This document shows positions 1,620-61,689 of a stretch of DNA of 64,000 nucleotides, one piece after another; positions within the stretch are counted from its first letter, which is position 1; the number at the start of each line of letters is the position of its first letter. Below the pieces are notes generated by a model. The model made no database searches. It saw only the letters and a list, made by a program, of their open reading frames with translations, and had not been told where the DNA came from. The stretch covers positions 186,001-250,000 of the forward strand of contig CAUYUJ010000336.1 of the NCBI GenBank assembly GCA_963575745.1, read 5' to 3'. This stretch comes from Prorocentrum cordatum. Taxonomy: Eukaryota. The position numbers and the translations under genes were made by a program.

Positions 1620-1917
1620 TGTCAGAGAGTAAAGGCCAGAAGTGAGCAGAGAGAACAGAGAGTACTGTGAGAGATCAAGGTACTTAATATCGGGATGAGA
1701 GGCCTTATTCGAATAAGCAGGGTAGCATTGTAGAGGAAGGAGGGAGGGATTGATATAGAAAGAAAGAGAGAGATAGAGAGCGAGAGACAGACAGGCAGAC
1801 AGAACGAGAGAGGGGTGAAGTTACACTTGTATGCACATTTAGACACATATGTAGGCTTATCCTGGGGAAGGACCCAGTCATATGCAGCTATGCGTACCGC
1901 AATTGTGAATATCTTTT

Positions 1918-2003
1918 TCGGTGGAGCTCCCTATGGGACCACGAGGCGCTGCTCTGGGTGGTGGTGGGGGGTGCATGCGGGCGGTAGCACTGGTGCCTGC
2001 CGT
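1918..2003 (+). repeat. Left part of a ~70-bp-unit satellite-like element (GGAGCTCCCTATGGGGCCACGAAGCGCTG family) split by LINE-A
   Basis: Same unit resumes at 8475 after the TSD. Confidence 0.85.
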
Positions 2004-2157
2004 TTTTGTTTTGGTGTGGCCAAGCTCGCGCGGCGCGAGCTCAGGTTCAACAGCTGCCGAGGGGCAGCTGTCGGCGGCGGCGAAAGCCTCGGGAAGCCGA
2101 GCAGCAAAGGACCGAGCTGGCCAAACGGGCCAGCTCGCTGCTGCCAAGCCAGACCCG

Positions 2158-5100
2158 TCAGCCTGCCTTCGCCATCGGGCGCGCCCCCTTCGGCGGCAGC
2201 CCTTGCCTGATATTCGCGACCTTCTCGAGGCGGTGCTGCAGGCCTCGAGCGGTCTCGGGCAACTTGCACTCGGCAGGCAAGCCCCTATGCTTACCGCCTA
2301 TCACGCGGGCATGGCAGTGGCAGCGCGTGCACACGCGATACCCATTGACAGTGCACAGCACGTGTTCGCCGCCGTCTACCCCTGGGACCCCTGTGCCAGC
2401 AGTCGCAGAGGCCGAGGCAGCGAGCGGCCCCGAGGATGCAGGCGGACCAGCGGTGTCACGAGTCACTGGGTCGGCCTCGGCGCCGAGCGAGTCCGCCCCC
2501 GAGCTACCACCAGCTCCACCAGTGGGCTCAGTCGTGCCGCTGCCGTGCCGTGCGCTGACCGCGGGCTTGGCAGACGGCGCGGGAGCGGTCGCAAAGACAG
2601 GCGAGGCGGCACCCGATGGGCAAGTGTCGACGCCAACAGAGGGTGCCCCGTCTGCTCGGTCGGCCTCACTCGCGGTCCCGCTCACACAGGAGCCAGTCGC
2701 AGCAGCCAGCAGGAACTCGATTTTTTCCTGAACCGCCATGCGAACCTTGGCCCTGGGCTCGCCGCTGCATCCGATGGGGCCTCGGACTCCCCCCGCAGGG
2801 CTGCGGGCCCGAGAACGGCGCCCCCTCGGGGGCGGCGGTGCGTCCTGCTCGCCAGCCTCGCTGGCCGCCAGCGCTGCAAAGGCTGCGGCTGCTGTGGCCG
2901 CCGTCGCCAACGCCGCTCGAGCAGGCCTCATCCTCACAGAGCCTCCTGAGTGAAAGGGTGCGTGCGGCTTAGCCGCGCACGGTTTGGCCCAGAAGTGGGC
3001 TTTGATGTTGGCGCTGTAGGCGGTCTTCAAGCAGCGCAGGCAGTGGATGCCTCCGTTGGGGGCCTCGACGACCTCGTGGCCCGTGAGGTGGAGGGAGATC
3101 TTGCCTTCCCGCTTGGCCGCCGTCTCATCAGACAGATCAGCACGGGCATCGGCCGCCTGGCCCCCAGCAGCCGCGACCCAGAAGAACGCCGCATCAAGCA
3201 TGGTCTGCCTCGCACGAATCACCTGCCTGATCTCGTCGGTGGCCCCCGTGCGGCTGGCGATGAACGTGGCACACCGATCAGCTCCAATGTTGCCTCGCCT
3301 CGCCCTGGTTGTGACCAGCCCTTCCTGCACGTGCTGCACCGAAGCGCGGGCCTTGACCTTCGCAGCCCGCAGGCCGCCGTCGCCGAGCCCTCCGAAGTCC
3401 TGAATCGCGTGCCATACACGGACCCAGATCTCGGCCCATGCTGACTTGCTGCTCGTAGTGACCTTTGGCCCGCGAGCGTTGATCCCGTCCACAACAAATG
3501 CTGCGTCAAAATGAGCCGTCACTGGTGGTAGACTGAACTTGAGGAGCAGGAGGAGCGCCAGCAACTCGCTCCCGTCGATGGACTGCAGTGGCCCCGCCAG
3601 TGGCGAGGCGAGGGCTCGCGTGGCTGACCCTGGCCCTGGGTCCACGCTGTCGCCACTCGGCGGAAGGGCCACCACCGCACAGCCAGCACAGGCGACCTGG
3701 GCCCCCCCGTCGATGAAGGCGCCGTCGGCGTACAAGTCGGGCACAGCAAACGGCAAGCCCTCCTCGTAGCCCTTGGTCCACTGCGCATGTGCAAGGAGGT
3801 CGTCGCCAGGCGGTGCCCACCCTGCGCGTGGCCCGGGTAGCCACAACCGACCGAACAGCGTTCTGATCGTGGTGGAGTCGCCCATGCCCTTTGAAGCGCT
3901 CCAGCTCCACCGGCAGCGAGAGGTTGGGCCATGCATCCTGGCACTCCATGTGTCGATGCCACAACGCGCCTAGCTTGTCAGGGCACAGCGAGCATACCGA
4001 GCACGAGCTGAGGCCTGCAGCACAGCGTCTCTCGTTTAGCCACTGACCGTCAACCAGGCACGATCTGGCGCACCCAGCCTCGCTAGGGGTCAAAGTCCTC
4101 CAGCTCCGCGCCACCTTGGTTGAACCTCTCCCCGACATGATCCACCGTCGGACTTGCGGCAAGAAGACCCCCCTGGCTTCGGAAATCCCGTAGCGCGTGG
4201 GCTTTGCCAGCTGCGCCAGCTGCCAGTGCTCGACGGACTTGGTGACGATCTGCCCCGCCGTCCACGGCGAGTGAACTGCCACATTGAGCTTCTCGCCAGC
4301 CTCGGAGACCCACTCAGCGAAGGCGGACGTCGTGAAGCCGATCTTCTGCAGCGACTTGACCGCGGCTCCGATCGGTCCGCGCACGTCAGACCAGATCTTG
4401 GCCACCTTCACGTTCCACTCGAAGGTGGTCCTGGGCATCGACGTCGGGATCCACTGCTCCCAGACTGCCCGAGCCTGCATCATCACGGGCCCAAGCGCGG
4501 CGGCGAAAATGGGGTCCAGGGTCCTGGCCCCTGAGAGCATCAGCACTGCAGTGGCGCTCTTGCCTGCTGGTCGGGCATCCACGGCTCTGACAGTGATGGG
4601 CCCCATCTTGGACAGCTCGCTCTCGTTGTGGCCAGTGCAGTTGACGCCGTAGAGGGCCGAATTGTGCAAGCCAGTGTAGGCAACCTTGGCAGCCGCGGCG
4701 CGCCCTTTCCTTAGCCCAAGAAAACTGCGCACCTTGCCCATGCGCAACTCGACATTGGCGAACCGCTGCTGCCGAATCGCCCTAACTGCTCGTCGCCCTT
4801 CAGCACGATCGATGCCGAGGTTCCTCGCGCGGCGCGCGCCAAGCACCCCTGCAACCTTGAGCAGCCGCCTGGAGATATTGCTGCGGACCCCAGTGGAGTT
4901 ACCCAGGACCCTGGACTTCTTGACGGCGGTTTTGAGCTTCACCTGCTTCAAATGCTGCACGAGGTGCCGTGTGGCACCTACCAGGTCATCCTGCACTTTC
5001 TCAGCGCTGCCCCAGCGCTGCAGCACTAGGTCGTCGACCACGATCGCTGGCGCGACAGCCCCGAACTTTGCGACCATCTCGTCCAGCGGATGCAGCAGCA

Positions 5101-7240
5101 TGAGCTTCATGAAGCCCGTGGCGAACGCATCCCCTGTGAGCACCGTCTGGTATACCTGCAGCTCCTGCGAGCAGCACCCGTCTAAGTGCAGGACCCGCGG
5201 CGCGCGATACAGCGAAATCTGCAGCTTGGCCAGCCACAGCGGGTACCCTTACTTGGTGGCCGCTTGCACCAGGCCCTGATGAGAGACTTGCTCGGACGCC
5301 TTCCACAGGTCGAGCAGGATGCTGGCAGATGCCCAGTCCTGGTCGGGATGCAGCTCCGCCATCATCGCGACCCACTCGGACCTCGTCTGCTGTTGCCACA
5401 CCGCTCTGTCGCAAGAGCGACCCGAAGAAGCCCACCAGTAGGGCCTGTCATTGTCCTTCTCCCACCTTTGCATGAGGGGCCTCCTGAGCCTTCCGTGCAC
5501 ACGTATCACCGCGGCAAGAAGGGCAATGGGACGAAGGCCCCCGTCTGCTTTGGGAATGAAGGCCATTTTTGTGATGAAAGAGCTGGGCCAGTCGGCCTTC
5601 GCCTCGATGGCCATGATGAGGTCAACTGGCGCCTCGATGCCTTGGTCGTCCATGAGATTGAACTCACAGGGCCGTAAGCTGTCGAAATTGGACCCTGACT
5701 GAGGCCTGAAAGACGAGATCACCTTCCGCAGCTCGGCGACTGAAGGTCTACCGGGGCGCTCTCCGAGATCTTGCGGCCATGCAGCGTGGTGCTTCGCAGG
5801 CTCTTGCTCGCGCGGTGCCGCCGCATCCCAGTGACCCGACCACTCGTCCACTAGCGTCTGCAGGCTTTGCTGGATGGTGGACGGCGGCTCGCCGTCTGGC
5901 TTGGCGGGCTTCGCGTTCCAGCTCTGCGCCATCTTGGTGGCCGCGTGGATGCCGCCTGTGCCCGTGGCCACAGAGTGCAGGACCCACTCGTTGTAGTTCT
6001 GGGAGGCCTGGTCCATGTCGGCCTTGACCACCTTCTCCGACCAGCTGAAGCAAGCCGCACTGAGAACGTCCAGCTGCGAGAGGGAGTAGATGCTGGCCCA
6101 CGTGGCTATCACGTGAATGGCGCGCTGCAGCTCGCCGAGCTCGGACGGGCGCCTGCTGACCAGCTTGCGCATGGCACGGAGCGCGCCCAGCCTTGTGAGC
6201 GGGCGCTCGATCTGCGCAGCATCCCTGAGGCAGATGGCGATCGCCCTGCACCCCGTCGATGCACGCCTGGCCCTTCGCAGTCTCGGCGGCGACGGCGCCG
6301 TAGCCGAAGTGCTCGCAAGCCAGGGTCGCTGCCCTCGGCCTGCGTACCTGTCGTGCTCATGGAGGAGCCCACACGCGTCGATCATGTTGGTCTCCGCCTG
6401 GCCGATGAAGATGCGCCACATGCAGTCCAAGTCGTTGGTGTTGGCGATCTTCTCCCGCACCTCTTCCCAGGCAGGTGCGTGGTCCCGCGAGCAGCGCGCT
6501 AGCGGCTTGGCCAGCGGCAGCTGCTTCGCAGTGCGCATGGCCGTGATGTCCTGGTGCCTGCTGGGCCCGAGCAGCTCGAGCGCGACAGGGTAGTGCGGGT
6601 TGAGGTCGAGCCCGTGAATGACGCTGGCCGTGGCCCTTCGAAAGCACCTGGAGACCACGAAGTAGTCGATGATCCTGCCAGCTGGCCTGCATGTGGCCTC
6701 AGTGGGTGCTGCCACCGCCGCCTGCGCAGCCTGGAGCCAGCCCGACTCTGCCAAGACCGACGGTTCCATGTTGAGGTCCCCTCCGACGACGAAGGGCCTG
6801 TTGGCAGCCTGGGGCGCCCTGAGCACCGCGTACAGCGTATATGCGTTGCTCTTGTTGAGGCCGACGTTGACCTCCAAATAGATGTTGACCCACGCGATGC
6901 CGCCTCTGCAGACGCCGTTGAAGCACAGCTGGCCTGCCGAGCAGGTCGAAAGGCCCGAGCCCAAGATGCTGGGGCGCCATCTGCACGAGGCCTCCACTGC
7001 CCTGGGGGCCTGGCCCAGCGTTGATCGCTGGTGCTGCCTCCGGGACCCATCCGAACCTGCGGAGTTGACCCATCTGTGCATCGTGTGTGCGCCGCGAATC
7101 CAGGTGCGTCTCCTGGACGGCCACGAAATCGCAGCGCCTGGCCGTGGAGGTGCCCAGCAGGTTGGCGAACCGAGACCAGGCGTTGCAGTTGACCGCAAGC
7201 CCGACCCACCGCCTGCCTTGCTCGTCCGACCCGCGGGGCA
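2158..7240 (-). pseudogene. LINE-A ORF2 polyprotein: APE endonuclease, reverse transcriptase, RNase H, Cys/His-rich C-terminus; several frameshifts
   Basis: APE: AVNCNAW..DFVAVQETH, VVGGDLNM, RIIDYFVVS, NPHYPV. RT: FIPKADGGLRPIALL, LLDLWKASEQVSH, IVVDDLVL. RNase H: LYADGA, SELLAL, HFDAAFVVDG, GNIGADRCA. C-terminal HCLRC and CTRCHC. Split across ORFs 6699-8627, 5249-7198, 3506-5143 and 2158-3936. Confidence 0.9.
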
Positions 7241-7275
7241 GGGTCGACGACCGACTGCCGCCGATCGCCGCGCTG

Positions 7276-8274
7276 CTACCCTCCCGCGGTGCGTGACCGC
7301 TTGGCCGCCCCGAGGGTGTCGAGCGCTTCCTGGGGCCGCTTCCTGTCGTTGTCGTCCGACGCGCTGCCGAGGAGCGCCCCAGGGTCGTCGCAGCCCATGA
7401 ACTTATCGAAGACGTCCCCTTCTGGCTGAGCCAGGGGGGTGTTCTCTTGATCGGCCCCGCCAGCCGCGCCAGCACCTGCTCCTTCAGCACCGCTTGCGGC
7501 AAGGCCGCCCCGCTGCTGTTCAGGCCCAGGAGGAGGGCCAGCGGCTGCAGCCGAGGTGGCCATCTCGCCCAAGAGCTTGGCGAGGCTGTCCACAACGTCT
7601 GCTCCAGACTTGCCCTCGGTGTCGATGGTGGCGACCTTCCCCTTGAGCGTGCGGATGGTTTCCTCCGCAGTGGTGGCCGAGTAGAGCTTGGCTGCCTGCT
7701 TCTTCGCCTCCTCGAGCTCCGCCTTGCGGTCCGCGAGGGCCTTCTCCGCGTCCGCGAGCGCCTCCAAGGCCTTGCGCGAGCTCGCCAAGAGGCGTTCACG
7801 CTTGGCAGCTGCGCCGGCGACGGCGAGGGAGGCCTGGTCGACCGCCAAGGGGAGCTTCCCCGCCTCAGTGCCCAAGACTCCAGCGGCTGCCTTTCTGCGT
7901 GCCAGCTCGACGTTGTCGCGACTGCTGCCGGAGAGAACATCCTTGACGAGTTCGTACGACTCCAGAGCCATGGCGGCGTAGGCCGCGATCTTGTCGGGGC
8001 CAAGGGCAACGGTGGTGCTGGCGTTGGGCCCTCCTCCGTTAGGTCCGAGCCCTTTGCCACCGCGCCCTTTGCCGCCGCCCTTGGGACCTTTGTGCCAAGG
8101 GGCCCCTTCTCTTCCGCCTCCGACTGCCCACTTGCCACGTGGCCTGACCTCGGCGTCGTTCGCCGCAGGCGCGCTGCGGTCCGAGTGCTTGCCCTTGCAG
8201 CCAGCCCTGATGCAGAGGGAGAGGCGCTGCGGGGCATAGCCACCACAACGCGCACGCTGCCAGCATTTCGCCAT
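7276..8274 (-). CDS. LINE-A ORF1 (N-terminal Cys cluster, Gly/Lys-rich linker, coiled coil)
   Basis: In-frame ATG at 8274 gives MAKCWQRARCGGYAPQRLSLCIRAGCKG. Coiled-coil-like segment ERLLASSRKALEALADAEKALADRKAELEEAKK. Lies between the SL and ORF2. Confidence 0.7.
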   Translation of the reverse strand: MAKCWQRARCGGYAPQRLSLCIRAGCKGKHSDRSAPAANDAEVRPRGKWAVGGGREGAPWHKGPKGGGKGRGGKGLGPNGGGPNASTTVALGPDKIAAYAAMALESYELVKDVLSGSSRDNVELARRKAAAGVLGTEAGKLPLAVDQASLAVAGAAAKRERLLASSRKALEALADAEKALADRKAELEEAKKQAAKLYSATTAEETIRTLKGKVATIDTEGKSGADVVDSLAKLLGEMATSAAAAGPPPGPEQQRGGLAASGAEGAGAGAAGGADQENTPLAQPEGDVFDKFMGCDDPGALLGSASDDNDRKRPQEALDTLGAAKRSRTAGG

Positions 8275-8449
8275 GAGAGCAGGAAGACCCAGGCAACCAG
8301 GCCGAGGAGGAAGACCGCGCACCCTCGGGCAGAGGGAGGCAGGTGGTACCCAGGGGCGGACCTGGCACCACAAAAGGATGGATCGCGAGCTCGGGGAACA
8401 GAGCTATCCCGTGTGTGCCAGGAGGCTAGCAGCCCCCCAAGCATTGGGT

Positions 8450-8471
8450 CTTGAGCCAAAATGGCTACGGA
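8450..8471 (-). other. Dinoflagellate spliced leader, perfect 22-mer TCCGTAGCCATTTTGGCTCAAG, at the 5' end of LINE-A
   Basis: Plus strand reads CTTGAGCCAAAATGGCTACGGA, the exact reverse complement of DinoSL. It is followed by ACCC rather than a GT donor, so this is not an SL-RNA gene. Confidence 0.97.
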
Positions 8472-8474
8472 CCG

Positions 8475-9010
8475 CTGGTGCCTGCCGTCGGTGGAGCTCC
8501 GCATGGGGCCACGAGGCGCTGTACTGGGTGGTGGGTGGGGGGGGGGGCGCATGCGGGCGGCAGCGCTGGGGCCGTCGGTGGAGCTCCCTATGGGGCCACG
8601 AAGCGCTGTGCTGGGTGGGGGGCGCAAGCGGGGTGTAGCACTGGAGCCGTCGGTGGAGCTCCCTATGCGGCCACGAAGCGCTGCACTGGGTGGGGGGGAA
8701 GCATGCGGGCGGTAGCACTGGGGCCGTCAGTGGAGCTCCCTAGGGGGCCACGAAGCGCTGTACTGGGTGGGGGGACGCATGCCGGCGGTAGCATCGGGTC
8801 GGTGGAGTTCCCTAGGGGGCCCACGAACCGCTGCACTGGGTGGGGGGGACGCATGTGGGCGGTAGCATTTGGGCCTTCGGTGGAGTTTCGTAGGGGGCCA
8901 CGAAGCGCTGTATTGGGTGGGTGAAACGCAGGGAGGAGAAAGGAGGCGGGAGGAAAACGCGGGGCGCCGTCTTTTCAAAACGAGGACCCAACATCATAGG
9001 ATGGTTGGGA
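8475..9010 (+). repeat. ~70-bp-unit tandem array with conserved terminus TCTTTTCAAAACGAGGACCCAA...GGTTGGGAA
   Basis: About 6 degenerate units, then a terminus shared with 38583-38625. Confidence 0.85.
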
Positions 9011-16700: not shown

Positions 16701-17490
16701 CAGCTCACTGTCTTACTTTTGCAGCCCACACTCTACACAGGCCCGACATCATTCCAATGGATCTCATTGCTGGCTTAGTTGATTGTGGGTATTGCTGTTA
16801 GTGCGTCGTGGTCAGAACAGAAATGTTGGCCTGTACCTGTGCGGGCATGAAACCTGGTCGTTCGATAATGTGGAGCAGCTTGGCGACCAGGTTAGCCTGC
16901 TGCTCAGGCTGCGAACAGGTTAGCCTGTGCTTGGTGAGACTAGGAGCAGCTTAGCGAAGTGCCTGGGGTGTAAACCGTTTCAGGTCGAAGCTGCCCGAGG
17001 CGGAAAGTTGTTGCGCGGCTTCTCTCCCGTCATGGGGCCCAGGGCGACTCGGACATCTATTGCACTGGGTATGGGGCTTTCTTTCGGGGTGTCGGACACG
17101 CCCCAGATGTTCGCGCGCCTCTCCGCTTCGCCTTCTAAAGTGCTGCTCGGTCGTCCAGGCCATCTTCCTCGCAAGTATGTGGTAGCTGGCTTCCAAGCGT
17201 CTAAACAACTGGTCCATCTGCGAGCCCAGCCGACGCTTTCTTGGAGCGAGCTTTGGACCAATGGTGCCCATGCTTTTAAATCTTCCGAAAATTGTTTCTT
17301 CCTCTCGGAGTCGATGTTTGCGTGTAGATCCTGGAGAAACTGGCTGGTGGCCTGGTCGGCTGCGCCCTCGGATAAGACTCCAGCTGCGATGTCAGCCAGC
17401 AGTAATTCGCACCGCTGGGCGACCGTCTGCAACCTGGCCTTCAGGTCGCTAGCGGCGTGGAACTTCCAGACTCTTGCCCTTGGGGGCGTC
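13790..17490 (-). pseudogene. LINE-B ORF2 remnant (pre-RT helical region, RT, RNase H, Cys/His motifs) with stops and frameshifts
   Basis: Motifs distributed over ORFs 16980-17969, 16333-16563, 15704-16384, 14928-15248 and 13993-14817 (HACAICRAS, ILCSACGSH). Confidence 0.8.
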
Positions 17491-18048
17491 CATCTACGCA
17501 TTCTTGAGTATCTCCAAGGCGTCTGTGTACTCGCGCCCATTGGCTCCGACCCATGTCTTCCAGAATGTGACCTGGGCCTGCGCCGGTGCGACGTGGTCTG
17601 GTTGGGCAGGGACCCCTGGTTCGTTGTCTGGCGCCTGCTGTTGCGATGGCTGCTCCTCGTCGCCGCCGCCCACGAAGCGGACTCGAGATTCCCAGGCGGC
17701 GCCGCGTCCTCCTCGACCACTGGGGCGGGGCAGATGGGAGGGTTGCCTGCTGCTCGCTCTGCTCTGCTGGCCGTCGGCCTGGAGGTGCGCGCCGCACTGC
17801 GAGCAAGCCTTGGCGGGCGCCCATTCCCACCCGCGGCAGCTGGCGCGAGGGCACACAAAGTACTTGCCGCGGGGAGCCATGTCGCAGCGCTGACGAGGGC
17901 GAGGGTGCCAAGAAACAGACTGGAGAGACCGTGGTTGCGTGCGGAGCTCGGGCTCCGAACCTTGGGCATGAGGGGCCTGAGGCAGGGGCTGCCCTGCCAC
18001 CGTCGGAGGGCCTGCTTTGGGGCAGCTCGCCTCGAGCCAGCCCCTCGG

Positions 18049-18070
18049 CTTGAACCAAAATGGCTACGGG
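18049..18070 (-). other. Spliced leader copy at the 5' end of LINE-B (CCCGTAGCCATTTTGGTTCAAG)
   Basis: Plus strand reads CTTGAACCAAAATGGCTACGGG. Positions 2-22 match DinoSL at 20 of 21 nt, and position 1 is C instead of D. Confidence 0.9.
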
Positions 18071-19489
18071 GGAGGAGGAGGAGGAGGAGGAGGAGGAGGA
18101 GGAGGAGGAGGAGGAACTCCGCTCTTCCGTCCTCCTCTCCTCCCCGTCACCCTCCCCGGGCAACCCTCCTCCATCCAGTAGTTTTCTGATGTATGTACCT
18201 TTCCTTGCGACCCCGTGCGGCAACGACCGCTGGGGGTGCGAGTGGGCAGCGACAGCGATAGAAGGAGGAAGACGAGGAGGACGACGACTATCCAGCTGAT
18301 TCTCATGTCTTTCGCCAGTGTGTGCTTCCAGGAGGCTTCTCGTCGCCACGGTTGGACTCCAGTTGAAATTTGTGAAGTGAAAAGTTGAGAAGGCAACCGT
18401 CATTCAACAGCCATATAACTAAAACTTGGTGCTTGTCTCTTGGGGGTCTCTTCGGGGCGCGCTTGGTGTCCTCTCGGGGCCTAGAGTCATGATGGAGGCC
18501 ATCATGGAGGCCATCTTGAGCTATCTGATGCCGCATTGAAACCATCTTGGCCCAAGAGCATCTCAAGTCTGCCCCCGAGTTCTCCGCATCTAGCATAACA
18601 CCATGCGTTAGTGAATGAGTTTGATTGAATGCGTGCCGGCTCTGGCTACTGGAGCCGGCACGCAGACTTCCTGTCCTGTCCTGTCCTGTCCTGGGGCTCT
18701 CTTGGGCGATCTTGGGGCCATCTTGCGTCTTCAGGGGCCAATCAAGGGCGAAACGGCGAGAAGGCACAGATCATTGAACAGCCTTACGTGTCTGGGCGAT
18801 TCTGGCCTCTCGGGGGTGTCCTTGGGAGGCTCAGTGGCTACTGGGAGCTGCCTTGCGGTGGTCTTGGGGCGTCTTGGAGGCATTTCGAATGTCATCTTGA
18901 TCTATCTTGGGCAACATTGAGCAGTCTTGGAGGCCAAGTTCCCAGCGGGAACGCCACGAGTTGTCTCGTTCACTTCTGCCCGCCCTCCCTCCATGCAGGC
19001 ACCACCCTAGACTATGCTTAGACAGAGGTCGAACACACATCAAGTGGGAACCAACACAGACGCCAGGTGCGCGACGCTCGGGAGGTGCGCCACGCGTGCC
19101 ATGTGTGCTGCGCGCGCCAGGTACGCCATGGTGCCCCAGGGGCATCGGACGCCAGGCGCGCCAGACGCGCCACGTGCTCCACGGTCGCGGAGCTTGCCAC
19201 CTGCTCCAACCGTGCCAGGTCCGCGGCTCGTGCAGCGTGCGCCAGGTGGGCCAGTGGACGCGGAAGCGCAACATCGGGCAATGTGTCGAACCCACGTCCA
19301 TTTGATACGAGACCACTTCAAAGTGGCGGCAGGGTGGTCAGCCTTGTGAAGAGCGCGTGGACAAAACGCACCCCTGGACACACATGGGGGCCCATATACA
19401 TATATCGGCGCACCGGGTCCGGGGGCCCGGGGGCCGGGACCCCGACCACAAATGTGGGCCCCGGGGGGCCCGGAGGCTCGTCGGACCGC

Positions 19490-60400: not shown

Positions 60401-60625
60401 CTAGCCCGTTCATATCCTGCAGCGGACTTTGGATGCGGTGCTGCTTGAATAGTTGTTGGACAGGGGTGCCTGGCGCACAGGTGTCAACACTTACCCCAAT
60501 AGCAGACATCGATGCAGCGTTGAGTGGATGGGGTGGCGCTGGAATGAATAGGAGAAAAGGAAAGTTCGGGTTTCTGACCACCCACCGCTGGAGCCAAATG
60601 GAGCCTTTGAGCCAAAATGGCTATG
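57480..60625 (-). mobile_element. Non-LTR retrotransposon LINE-C (RTE-like; ORF1 + APE + post-RT region, RT core deleted), 5' tandem SL; 3' boundary approximate
   Basis: APE: TWNDDGL, IDVLAIQE, GVGFIVSP, LSTYAPQS, VLGDFNAK, QIDHVL. Post-RT: LLTNDGRVGNELSWRIGEARRVFQQLANLW..KILIYNSCLLSKLLYSL. ORF1-like IWASPDQPPSER (59439-59858). SL copies at 60588-60625. Confidence 0.82.
60588..60625 (-). other. Spliced leader followed by a tandem relic SL at the 5' end of LINE-C
   Basis: Minus strand reads CATAGCCATTTTGGCTCAAAGGCTCCATTTGGCTCCAG. This contains a 17-nt exact SL core (60607-60623) and then CCATTTGGCTCCAG, resembling the relic CCATTTTGGCTCAAG. Confidence 0.85.
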
Positions 60626-61689
60626 TATCGCCCATGTGTATCGCCCATTTGGCTTGGATGGCCTATGTATCACCCATTTGGCCTTGAATGCTCCAGTATG
60701 GTTGGCATCCACTACGCGTTGAGGTCTCAAGGCAATATTGAGACAATCGACCGTTGTCCGTTGGCGGTAACGCATCGCCCAGCCATGGTTGCCCGCCGTG
60801 TTACGTCGCGGGGCATTCCCCGGGGCGCATTGAGCTCAAATGTGAATTTAATTTCGGGGGCCCCCAAACGGGGTGGTGACCACACCGTGTGGTGAGTCGG
60901 TTGGGGGTTCGGGGTCACCGCACGGTTTTGGGACTTGGGTCGTTTTCCGAGGATGTCTCGGGCGGTTGGGGCCTCCAGGGTCCCAAAACCGTGTGGTGAC
61001 GGCCCATGCGGTGAGGTCTTTGCGGATTTCGAGGTCGCCGCCGGGTCTGTCACCACCTGGTTTTGGGACACCCAATACATGTTGCGTTTCCCCACATGTC
61101 TGCTAATCAAAAAGAAGACTCGCACCGGGAAATGCGAATTCACACGTTGCGTCTTTTCGAAACGTGAATTCGCAGTTTGCGTTTTTGTTCAAAATGGAAA
61201 GTCTCATTCGTGCCTGCCAACTGTGAATTCACATCTTACGTATTGCAACGCATGGGTTCCATTATGCTTGTGCCAGCGAGATTGGTTGGGCGATGCGTTG
61301 CCGCCAACGAAGCATTCCCGTCTCGATACGCCTACGCGCAATGGATGCCAGGCATGCCAGATCATTTGTATAAGACTTACATCGGCCATTCAGCATCCAC
61401 TGTACTTCTCCGCTGCGGACCCTTCTGTGACCCTCCAACTCAAGCGAGTACTTTTTGCACGCCCAGTAACCTTTAGCAAGCAACATATTACGGCGGATCT
61501 AAAAAGCGCCTACGGCGAACCACCGCCGCTCCTTGCCTTTGGAAAGGCCCCTGTGGGCAAAAGTTGTTGGAATCTTGCCACGGTATTGAACTAAGTGTTC
61601 CGCAGTCCGTTGTGGAAGCTTTGGGGGTGAACGCTTGCTGGGGAAGAATTTCGGATATGAAGGATGAAGAGGAGGAGAGGCCGAAGGAT

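Follow-up and report, generated by a model that had tools for sequence, protein, structure and literature searches.

CRE1, CRE2, SLACS and CZAR of trypanosomatids and NeSL-1 of nematodes are retrotransposons without long terminal repeats (LTRs) that insert into the spliced leader (SL) RNA gene and encode a restriction-like endonuclease. In dinoflagellates, SL-tagged retrogenes, or recycled cDNAs, were reportedly described by Slamovits and Keeling in 2008. Here we analyzed a stretch of 64,000 nts of Prorocentrum cordatum DNA (assembly GCA_963575745.1, contig CAUYUJ010000336.1, positions 186,001 to 250,000 of the forward strand), hereafter called the window, which carries on its minus strand, between positions 1990 and 8488, a long interspersed nuclear element (LINE) whose first bases are an exact 22-nt dinoflagellate SL (DinoSL) lying inside the target-site duplication (TSD) of the insertion. 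The results point with good confidence to a dead but structurally complete dinoflagellate LINE that was copied from an SL-capped mature message into a satellite through target-primed reverse transcription (TPRT).

Several described systems come close to this configuration. In dinoflagellates, SL relicts are tags of retroposed mRNAs (PMC12014239). Symbiodinium genes that have a DinoSL relict upstream show an enrichment of the gene ontology (GO) term 'RNA-dependent DNA replication' (Song et al. 2017, PMC5585692), which may be taken as an implicit precedent for SL-tagged LINEs, and the T-rich motif of the leader was proposed in the same paper to be a promoter element. The reverse transcriptase (RT) behind SL-tagged retrogenes is stated to be unknown, or is only presumed to be LINE-derived, in the available text of PMC5585692 and PMC12014239; retroposition or retrotransposons are treated there as the machinery, and an SL-capped LINE is not described in those parts. 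The L1Tc/ingi elements are reported to have an internal promoter (Pr77), a ribozyme resembling that of hepatitis delta virus (HDV) and unspliced transcripts. Transposon transcripts of Hydra carry the host SL, on RNA evidence only (PMC12220107), and SL-containing retrotransposon copies of Schistosoma mansoni were suggested to have been perhaps trans-spliced and then retro-transcribed, the authors allowing for assembly artefacts (PMC5832876). In the SymbioLINE of Symbiodinium, ORF1 encodes a DNA methyltransferase and ORF2 contains an RT (de Mendoza et al. 2018, PMC5890265); the terms 'spliced leader' and 'DinoSL' do not occur in the text of that paper. No dinoflagellate LINE with an SL inside its TSD was found in the literature searched, bioRxiv supplements lying outside the search (Table 24 of 10.1101/2022.07.25.501386 may bear on the point).

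The original prediction for this locus gave the order of the insert as TSD, 3 extra nts, 22-nt SL, 5' untranslated region (UTR), ORF1, ORF2, A-rich tail and TSD, and this order was confirmed at every coordinate (Table 1). The insert has the properties that define a LINE: an RT of the non-LTR type, an N-terminal apurinic/apyrimidinic endonuclease (APE), here split by a frameshift, and a TSD with an A-rich tail in the absence of terminal repeats. The repeat search revealed no LTRs and no terminal inverted repeats, the only repeats at the termini being the TSD and the satellite, and an LTR element was thereby ruled out. The tail is present as predicted but measures only 9-10 nts.

Table 1. Coordinates of the LINE insertion and of its satellite target in the window.
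Feature	Position	Strand	Basis or remark
Satellite array of 77-bp monomers, about 5 monomers, upstream of the insert (target)	8489..8921		5.1 copies at 8536-8921
5' copy of the TSD, 14 bp, ACGGCAGGCACCAG	8475..8488	-	sequence reading, motif count
3 extra nts, CGG, between TSD and SL	8472..8474	-	not in the empty-site monomer
Exact 22-nt DinoSL, TCCGTAGCCATTTTGGCTCAAG, first bases of the inserted cDNA	8450..8471	-	sequence reading, shuffle test
5'UTR, 175 nts	8275..8449	-	begins ACCCAATGC straight after the terminal AG of the SL
ORF1, 332 aa and stop	7276..8274	-	
ORF2 N-terminus, first half of APE	6951..7268	-	contains VQETH; +1 frame relative to ORF1; BLASTP to P0003
ORF2 after the frameshift near 6950: second half of APE, linker, RT motifs to LLDLWKA	5252..6949	-	ends at an in-frame TAA
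ORF2 continued: RT motifs (TGDAFAT, VVDD), thumb-like region, C-x2-C...H-x4-C knuckle	3890..5248	-	
ORF2 after the frameshift at about 3890: RNase H, Cys/His-rich C-terminus, stop	2158..3936	-	
3'UTR	2013..2157	-	sequence reading
Short A-rich tail, AAAACAAAA	2004..2012	-	next A, at 2003, common to tail and TSD
3' copy of the TSD, same 14-mer ACGGCAGGCACCAG	1990..2003	-	
Remaining part of the last satellite monomer, which the insert interrupts; downstream side	1921..1989		repeat family D2

Two motif counts identify the edges of the insertion. Firstly, the SL 21-mer was found 3 times in the window when up to 3 mismatches were allowed, always on the minus strand, against an expectation of 0.00 (100 shuffles), and the sole exact match among the 3 was the one at 8450-8470. 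Secondly, the 14-mer of the TSD, with up to 1 mismatch, had exactly 2 matches in the window, against an expectation of 0.05 and with no shuffle out of 100 giving 2 or more. The claim that an exact 22-nt SL lies inside a 14-bp TSD was upheld by both counts. As the 14-mer represents a variant private to this satellite monomer (ACGGC-AGGCA-CCAG, where the other monomers read ACGGC[C/T]CCAG), it is a true TSD resulting from the duplication of a single site; the possibility that satellite periodicity imitates a TSD was ruled out by the same variant. When the insert and one copy of the TSD were removed and the flanks were joined, a normal, SL-free monomer was rebuilt, and no SL-like sequence was present in the satellite flanks with up to 6 errors allowed. 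The target is thus a satellite unrelated to the SL, and the SL is part of the inserted cDNA, both as had been claimed.

The bases following the SL distinguish the insert from SL-RNA genes. At the insert the junction reads AAG/ACCC, i.e. the SL ends at the exon boundary without the SL-RNA intron, whereas the junction reads AAG/GTAC, with the intron, in the SL-RNA genes L132, L133, L138 and L144. This difference indicates that nothing but the exon was passed on, as happens in trans-splicing. Because the SL lies in the TSD and ends at the exon boundary, and because the target was devoid of SL, the template appears to have been a trans-spliced mRNA; for this copy, the earlier proposal of a trans-spliced intermediate stands. 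No SL relict was seen behind the leader when the insert sequence was read. A search of positions 1800-8900 against 4227 Rfam families (cmscan, E<=1) gave 0 matches and no HDV-like ribozyme, although a divergent ribozyme could escape such a search.

The comparison with known systems places the element next to the SL-tagged retrogenes of dinoflagellates. Like them, it is the retroposed copy of a processed mRNA and has a DinoSL encoded in the DNA at its 5' end, and the features of an SL-tagged retrocopy were all found, namely the full 22-nt SL, the A-rich tail and a TSD around both. In contrast to them, the message is the LINE's own, so that the tag sits on what is presumed to drive retroposition, and the window copy has clean hallmarks of TPRT around a full SL without relicts. 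The element shares with CRE, SLACS, CZAR and NeSL the physical linkage of a non-LTR retrotransposon to SL sequence. It differs from CRE, SLACS and NeSL by its N-terminal APE, by the RNase H and Cys/His motifs behind its RT and by its target, a satellite here and a microsatellite in the second element L139 described below; moreover, the SL lies in the TSD as cDNA, followed by the UTR of the element and not by the GTAC intron. The insertion is therefore not of the CRE/SLACS/NeSL type, in agreement with the prediction. L1Tc/ingi are, similarly to the window element, APE-type LINEs living in hosts with trans-splicing and polycistronic transcription; their 5' end is reported to be set by RNA processing through a ribozyme, whereas the window element carries the SL and matched no ribozyme family in the above search. 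Transposon RNAs of Hydra and Schistosoma use host SL trans-splicing, as proposed here, in other phyla and with other leaders; in contrast to the case of Schistosoma, the TSD encloses the SL in the window copy, and the SL therefore entered with the cDNA. SymbioLINE resembles the window element as a dinoflagellate LINE with an ORF1 and an RT-containing ORF2, a likeness of layout.

The identity of the element as a LINE was assessed from its two ORFs. ORF1 has a Cys-rich N-terminus, a Gly-rich stretch, a middle rich in Ala, Leu, Lys and Glu that is coiled-coil-like as judged by eye and not by computation, and an acidic tail. It gave no significant Pfam match, and a word-indexed search over 8000 candidates of 182-581 aa retrieved no homologue at E<=1e-3. 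ORF2 is broken three times, by a frameshift near 6950 inside the APE, by a TAA at 5251-5249 and by a frameshift at about 3890. Judged from its reading frames, the copy is structurally complete but mutationally dead; the 'full-length' element of the prediction is full-length in structure, with an ORF2 that two frameshifts and one stop have interrupted. The APE, RT and RNase H domains had also been predicted. In the window copy itself Pfam scored Exo_endo_phos at 14.8 bits, below the cut-off of 24.5, and gave no match to RT (RVT_1) or RNase H at E<=0.1. The architecture (APE, RT, zinc knuckle, RNase H) is instead established at the sequence level through homologues. The N-terminal APE piece, QETH included, aligned with residues 32-133 of the homologue P0003 (BLASTP, E 4e-15, 39% identity), the RT region aligned with the same protein at 42% identity (E 6e-98) with the motifs PK..GG.RPI, LLDL.KA and VDD, and the last ORF2 piece aligned with its residues 1164-1434 (E 2e-28), which carry Pfam RNase_H. 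The named members of the P0003 cluster bear the labels Prorocentrum cordatum and Polarella glacialis, which, taken with the three SL-like strings and the GC content of 59%, points to a dinoflagellate genome. RNase_H was also found by Pfam in the relative P0006, and RVT_1 was above cut-off in P0006 and in L139. An exhaustive HMMER search yielded 3721 representatives at E<=1e-3, including 279 at E<=1e-30. A profile built from 30 family members (A1) matched solved structures of RNase H (7e-10), of the RTs of R2 and LINE-1 ORF2p (2e-9 to 3e-8) and of ExoIII nucleases (7e-5). An RNase H and a zinc knuckle behind the RT are common to several LINE clades, and for this reason the element is not assigned to a clade.

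Some further observations concern the ORFs. The frame of the APE N-terminus is open upstream (6699-8552, minus strand) through ORF1, the 5'UTR and the SL and into the satellite, with an in-frame ATG at 8444-8442 inside the 5'UTR; this long open frame is probably a by-product of high GC content (59% in the window). ORF2 starts without a nearby ATG both in the window element and in L139. Fragments 81-87% identical to the LINE ORF2 (P0058, P0063 and P0130) are filed in EukProt under the green alga Pyramimonas sp. CCMP1952, a data set that probably contains dinoflagellate sequence.

To place the window copy among other SL loci, contigs were scanned for the exact SL 21-mer, which was present in 119 stretches of viral_contigs and 20 of genome_contigs (156 distinct occurrences), and the ORF2 profile was searched over the six-frame ORFs of 145 loci. 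The profile matched a single SL locus, L139; its other matches were the 7 metagenome relatives L001-L007. L139 (also L146) is a contig of 9,096 nts with 70% GC, found within a bacterial metagenome-assembled genome (MAG) and belonging to an organism other than that of the window. It shows, in order, a (AGAGAC/AG)n repeat, a C, the SL 21-mer CCGTAGCCATTTTGGCTCAAG, a UTR of 93 nts, an ORF1 that contains a zinc finger of the RanBP2 family (E 1.6e-7) and, after a gap of 17 nts, an uninterrupted ORF2 of 2536 aa in which Exo_endo_phos (36.6 bits) and RVT_1 (43.3 bits) are both above cut-off; its 3'UTR is followed by GGGTAAAAAA (A6) and a (GA)n repeat. The two ORF2 proteins are 23% identical over 620 aa. 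The SL thus stands at the exact edge of the insertion in two deeply diverged members of the superfamily, which come from different organisms and have repeat targets that are not related, and this argues that the window copy is no freak.

Simple repeats were seen repeatedly next to SL-capped insertions: (GT)n, (TCA)n, (AG)n and (ACAG)n lie right before the SL in 4 of the 20 genome_contigs stretches (L127, L130, L139 and L141), and the 3' ends of L127, L130 and L141 lie beyond their contigs. In the window, (TCC)n precedes a second SL (18049-18110) and the LINE itself is neighbored by the satellite. The integration machinery may thus have a preference for such targets. At another locus, L137, the SL is followed by two tandem CCATTTTGGCTCAAG relicts, the signature of classical repeated mRNA recycling, whereas both LINEs have a single SL without relicts.

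The repetition of the window's own family was estimated from DNA runs X1-X3, which were compared with the stretch in 30 bins; run X1 contains 0.22 of the sampled words. Run X1 covered all 30 bins, with word depths of 10.4-142 inside the element, and 15,018 of the 19,964 matching records were 90-99% alike. The depth of X1 over the bins of ORF1 and the 5'UTR (17.8-57.9) was within the range of the ORF2 bins, and since X1 covers them like ORF2, ORF1 and the 5'UTR belong to the repeated unit. Four X1 contigs differ from the window copy by lacking one base at 3890, so the frameshift at about 3890 is peculiar to this copy or to a minority. One X3 contig joins the SL (8450) to position 7385 of the element, with a side of 23 nts and at a likeness threshold of 80%; this joint is a weak hint in support of SL-bearing copies elsewhere. 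The 77-bp satellite is extremely abundant in X1, with summed word depths of 4.6e4 in the bin 8336-8572 and 4.2e5 in the bin 8573-8800; it has no depth in X2 and a depth of 498 in one bin of X3.

Other explanations for the SL at the start of the insert were weighed against copying from a mature, SL-capped message of the element. The one that survives best, though it is unlikely, considers the copy as a one-off: the RNA of the family would normally be made from a promoter without SL, and a rare read-through transcript, joined to the SL at a cryptic AG in front of the 5'UTR, would have given rise to the window copy (and, coincidentally, the same would hold for L139), making the SL uninformative about the 5' end of the family. 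It accommodates the single copy of the window family seen at its 5' end, the defects of that copy and the finding that L1Tc/ingi transcripts are reportedly unspliced and made from an internal promoter despite trans-splicing hosts. It also accommodates the absence of a tandem relict behind the leader, as repeated cycles through SL-bearing daughters might leave one, as at L137; however, re-splicing at the terminal AG of the leader would leave no relict. Against a one-off also stand the identical layout of L139, a LINE only 23% identical in another organism and at another locus, the description of trans-splicing as the general fate of dinoflagellate nuclear mRNAs and the enrichment of RT-related GO terms among SL-tagged genes (PMC5585692).

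Template switching is far less probable. The RT would have finished an SL-less LINE RNA and then jumped to SL RNA or to an SL-capped mRNA, in the manner of U6/LINE-1 chimeras. Chimeric insertions of LINE-1 and small RNAs are known (10.1101/2025.02.02.635956), and the 3 extra nts show that the 5' junction is not perfectly clean. However, a jump to SL RNA starts at its 3' end and would carry the intron (GTAC...), and a jump to another mRNA would carry the sequence downstream of its SL, whereas in the window, and in contrast to the small-RNA chimeras, the 22-nt exon is present alone and is joined exactly at the splice junction, a precision seen in two independent elements. The least probable reading, with hardly any likelihood left to it, takes the SL, the 5'UTR and 'ORF1' as parts of a host gene reading into a 5'-truncated LINE, the hybrid RNA having been retroposed; it could explain why ORF1 lacks both a significant Pfam domain and a homologue in the word-indexed search, but the X1 depths given above show that ORF1 and the 5'UTR are repeated together with ORF2, a complete APE N-terminus starts ORF2 directly after ORF1, and in L139, too, the SL is followed by ORF1 and then ORF2. 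The TSD enclosing the SL ruled out an insertion into an SL gene.

Copying from an SL-capped mature message could proceed as follows. The transcript of the element would be trans-spliced at the AG just upstream of ACCCAATGC, receiving the 22-nt SL, and would be polyadenylated. The APE would nick a satellite monomer, reverse transcription would begin at the A tail and proceed up to the capped 5' end, after which 3 nts would be added, and a nick of the second strand 14 bp away would give rise to the TSD. The new DNA copy would thereby open with the 22 bases of the leader. From the structure of the insertion we infer TPRT itself and trans-splicing as the source of the SL, and we likewise infer that the CGG is an untemplated or cap-related addition made at the end of reverse transcription. 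A daughter copy could be re-expressed by three routes: read-through transcription and re-splicing at the terminal AG of the leader, which would yield the same RNA without a relict; splicing at an internal AG, which would leave a CCATTTTGGCTCAAG relict as at L137; or use of the T-rich (TTTT) motif of the leader as a weak promoter.

Whether this applies beyond the window copy was considered at two levels. That the superfamily normally travels as SL-capped mRNAs, with trans-splicing setting the 5' end of the transposed unit, is in our estimate an evenly balanced proposition. The view of the original prediction, in which the family owes its 5' end to SL addition and not to an internal promoter, is no more than plausible. 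A broader reading would combine all of these elements into a dinoflagellate-wide LINE superfamily that has no promoter-defined 5' end, is cut from host read-through transcripts by SL trans-splicing, regenerates by itself, and free of relicts, an SL start on every full-length daughter, prefers satellites and microsatellites and may be the machinery behind SL-tagged retrogenes; this combination is offered tentatively, and we lean somewhat against it as a whole.

A number of results weigh against extending the SL-capped template from this copy to its relatives. Firstly, within the window's own family the 5' end was seen in one copy only: blastn and tblastn found no second copy of the element inside the window, and the depth of the satellite (4.6e4-4.2e5, versus tens for the element) is such that the loose ends and joints shown in the runs were all satellite. 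This copy is moreover defective, and an atypical RNA mobilised in trans could have been its source. Secondly, none of the 7 metagenome relatives, found by a scan with a 4-member alignment, has an SL (up to 3 mismatches, or up to 4 errors); 5 of these relatives lie on contigs that are fragments or do not extend to the 5' end. In L002 the 5' end may be present, following a (TAC)n repeat, and only the partial SL-like string TAAAGCGTTTGGCTCATTG is seen there. The MAGs G002 (11 matches) and G005 (3 matches) contain LINE fragments, or ORFs open at both contig ends, without a captured 5' end, and no SL-like string was found near these fragments with up to 5 errors allowed (9 loci). Thirdly, among the 12 GC-rich SL occurrences with at least 300 nts downstream, a LINE was present at 1. 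Finally, a 2019 preprint (10.1101/783902) states for two Symbiodinium genomes that there is no overlap in function between DinoSL-relict genes and RT genes.

The searches for relatives gave some additional observations. At L002:1-80, in the distant LINE relative, the string TAAAGCGTTTGGCTCATTG right after (TAC)n shares a GGCTCA core with the leader and has no SL match with up to 4 errors. The MAGs G007 and G009 gave only weak nuclease-like matches, and a scan of viral_contigs with the 4-member alignment found no relative.

Besides the LINE, the window contains two other SL-like strings on the minus strand. The second SL relict (18049-18069, 1 mismatch, CCGTAGCCATTTTGGTTCAAG) lies directly behind (TCC)n and is followed by an ATG-initiated ORF (16980-17969) without a Pfam family; an A9 run at about 12727-12719, before a CT-rich sequence, might be the tail of this second SL insertion. 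A degenerate string (60606-60626, 3 mismatches), with inverted pieces of GCCAAATGG before it and CCATTTGGCTCC after it, is possibly an old, rearranged relict cluster. Pfam found 0 families in 24 other long ORFs of the window.

The SL scan also revealed a set of AT-rich contigs, L008-L126 in viral_contigs (e.g. L016, L018-L020, L027, L031 and L058-L068), assigned to giant-virus bins named 'GVMAG', in which the exact DinoSL 21-mer occurs many times per contig. Of 124 occurrences tallied, 49 lie directly behind one of three AT-rich endings (...ATTTTA, ...TTTTTA and ...AAACCA), with longer conserved forms such as tttttatttttaaatataaatttta and tttttattattattttactaaacca, and 108 are followed within 300 nts (median 51) by an ATG-initiated ORF of at least 100 aa. 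In 30 ORFs behind these SLs, Pfam recognized DUF4116 repeats and CCCH fingers as well as an ABC ATPase, and no viral hallmark. It looks like viruses, or AT-rich alveolate genomes, hard-code the host leader before their genes; no description combining giant viruses, spliced leaders and dinoflagellates was found among the titles listed in the literature search.

The window insertion brings together LINE biology and the recycling of mRNAs in dinoflagellates, a combination that a specialist of these organisms would largely expect. It would mean that LINE messages share the pool of SL-capped mRNAs with host genes and that LINE-type integration can copy such RNAs up to their capped end, and it provides a candidate for the machinery behind SL-tagged retrogenes, with testable predictions. 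The 5' end of a LINE may then be set in three ways: by an internal promoter, as in L1, by a ribozyme that processes co-transcripts with the host (R2 and L1Tc) or, as proposed here, by host trans-splicing. For the study of dinoflagellate genomes, it implies that LINE copies will be included wherever 'retrogenes' are surveyed by their upstream DinoSL relicts.

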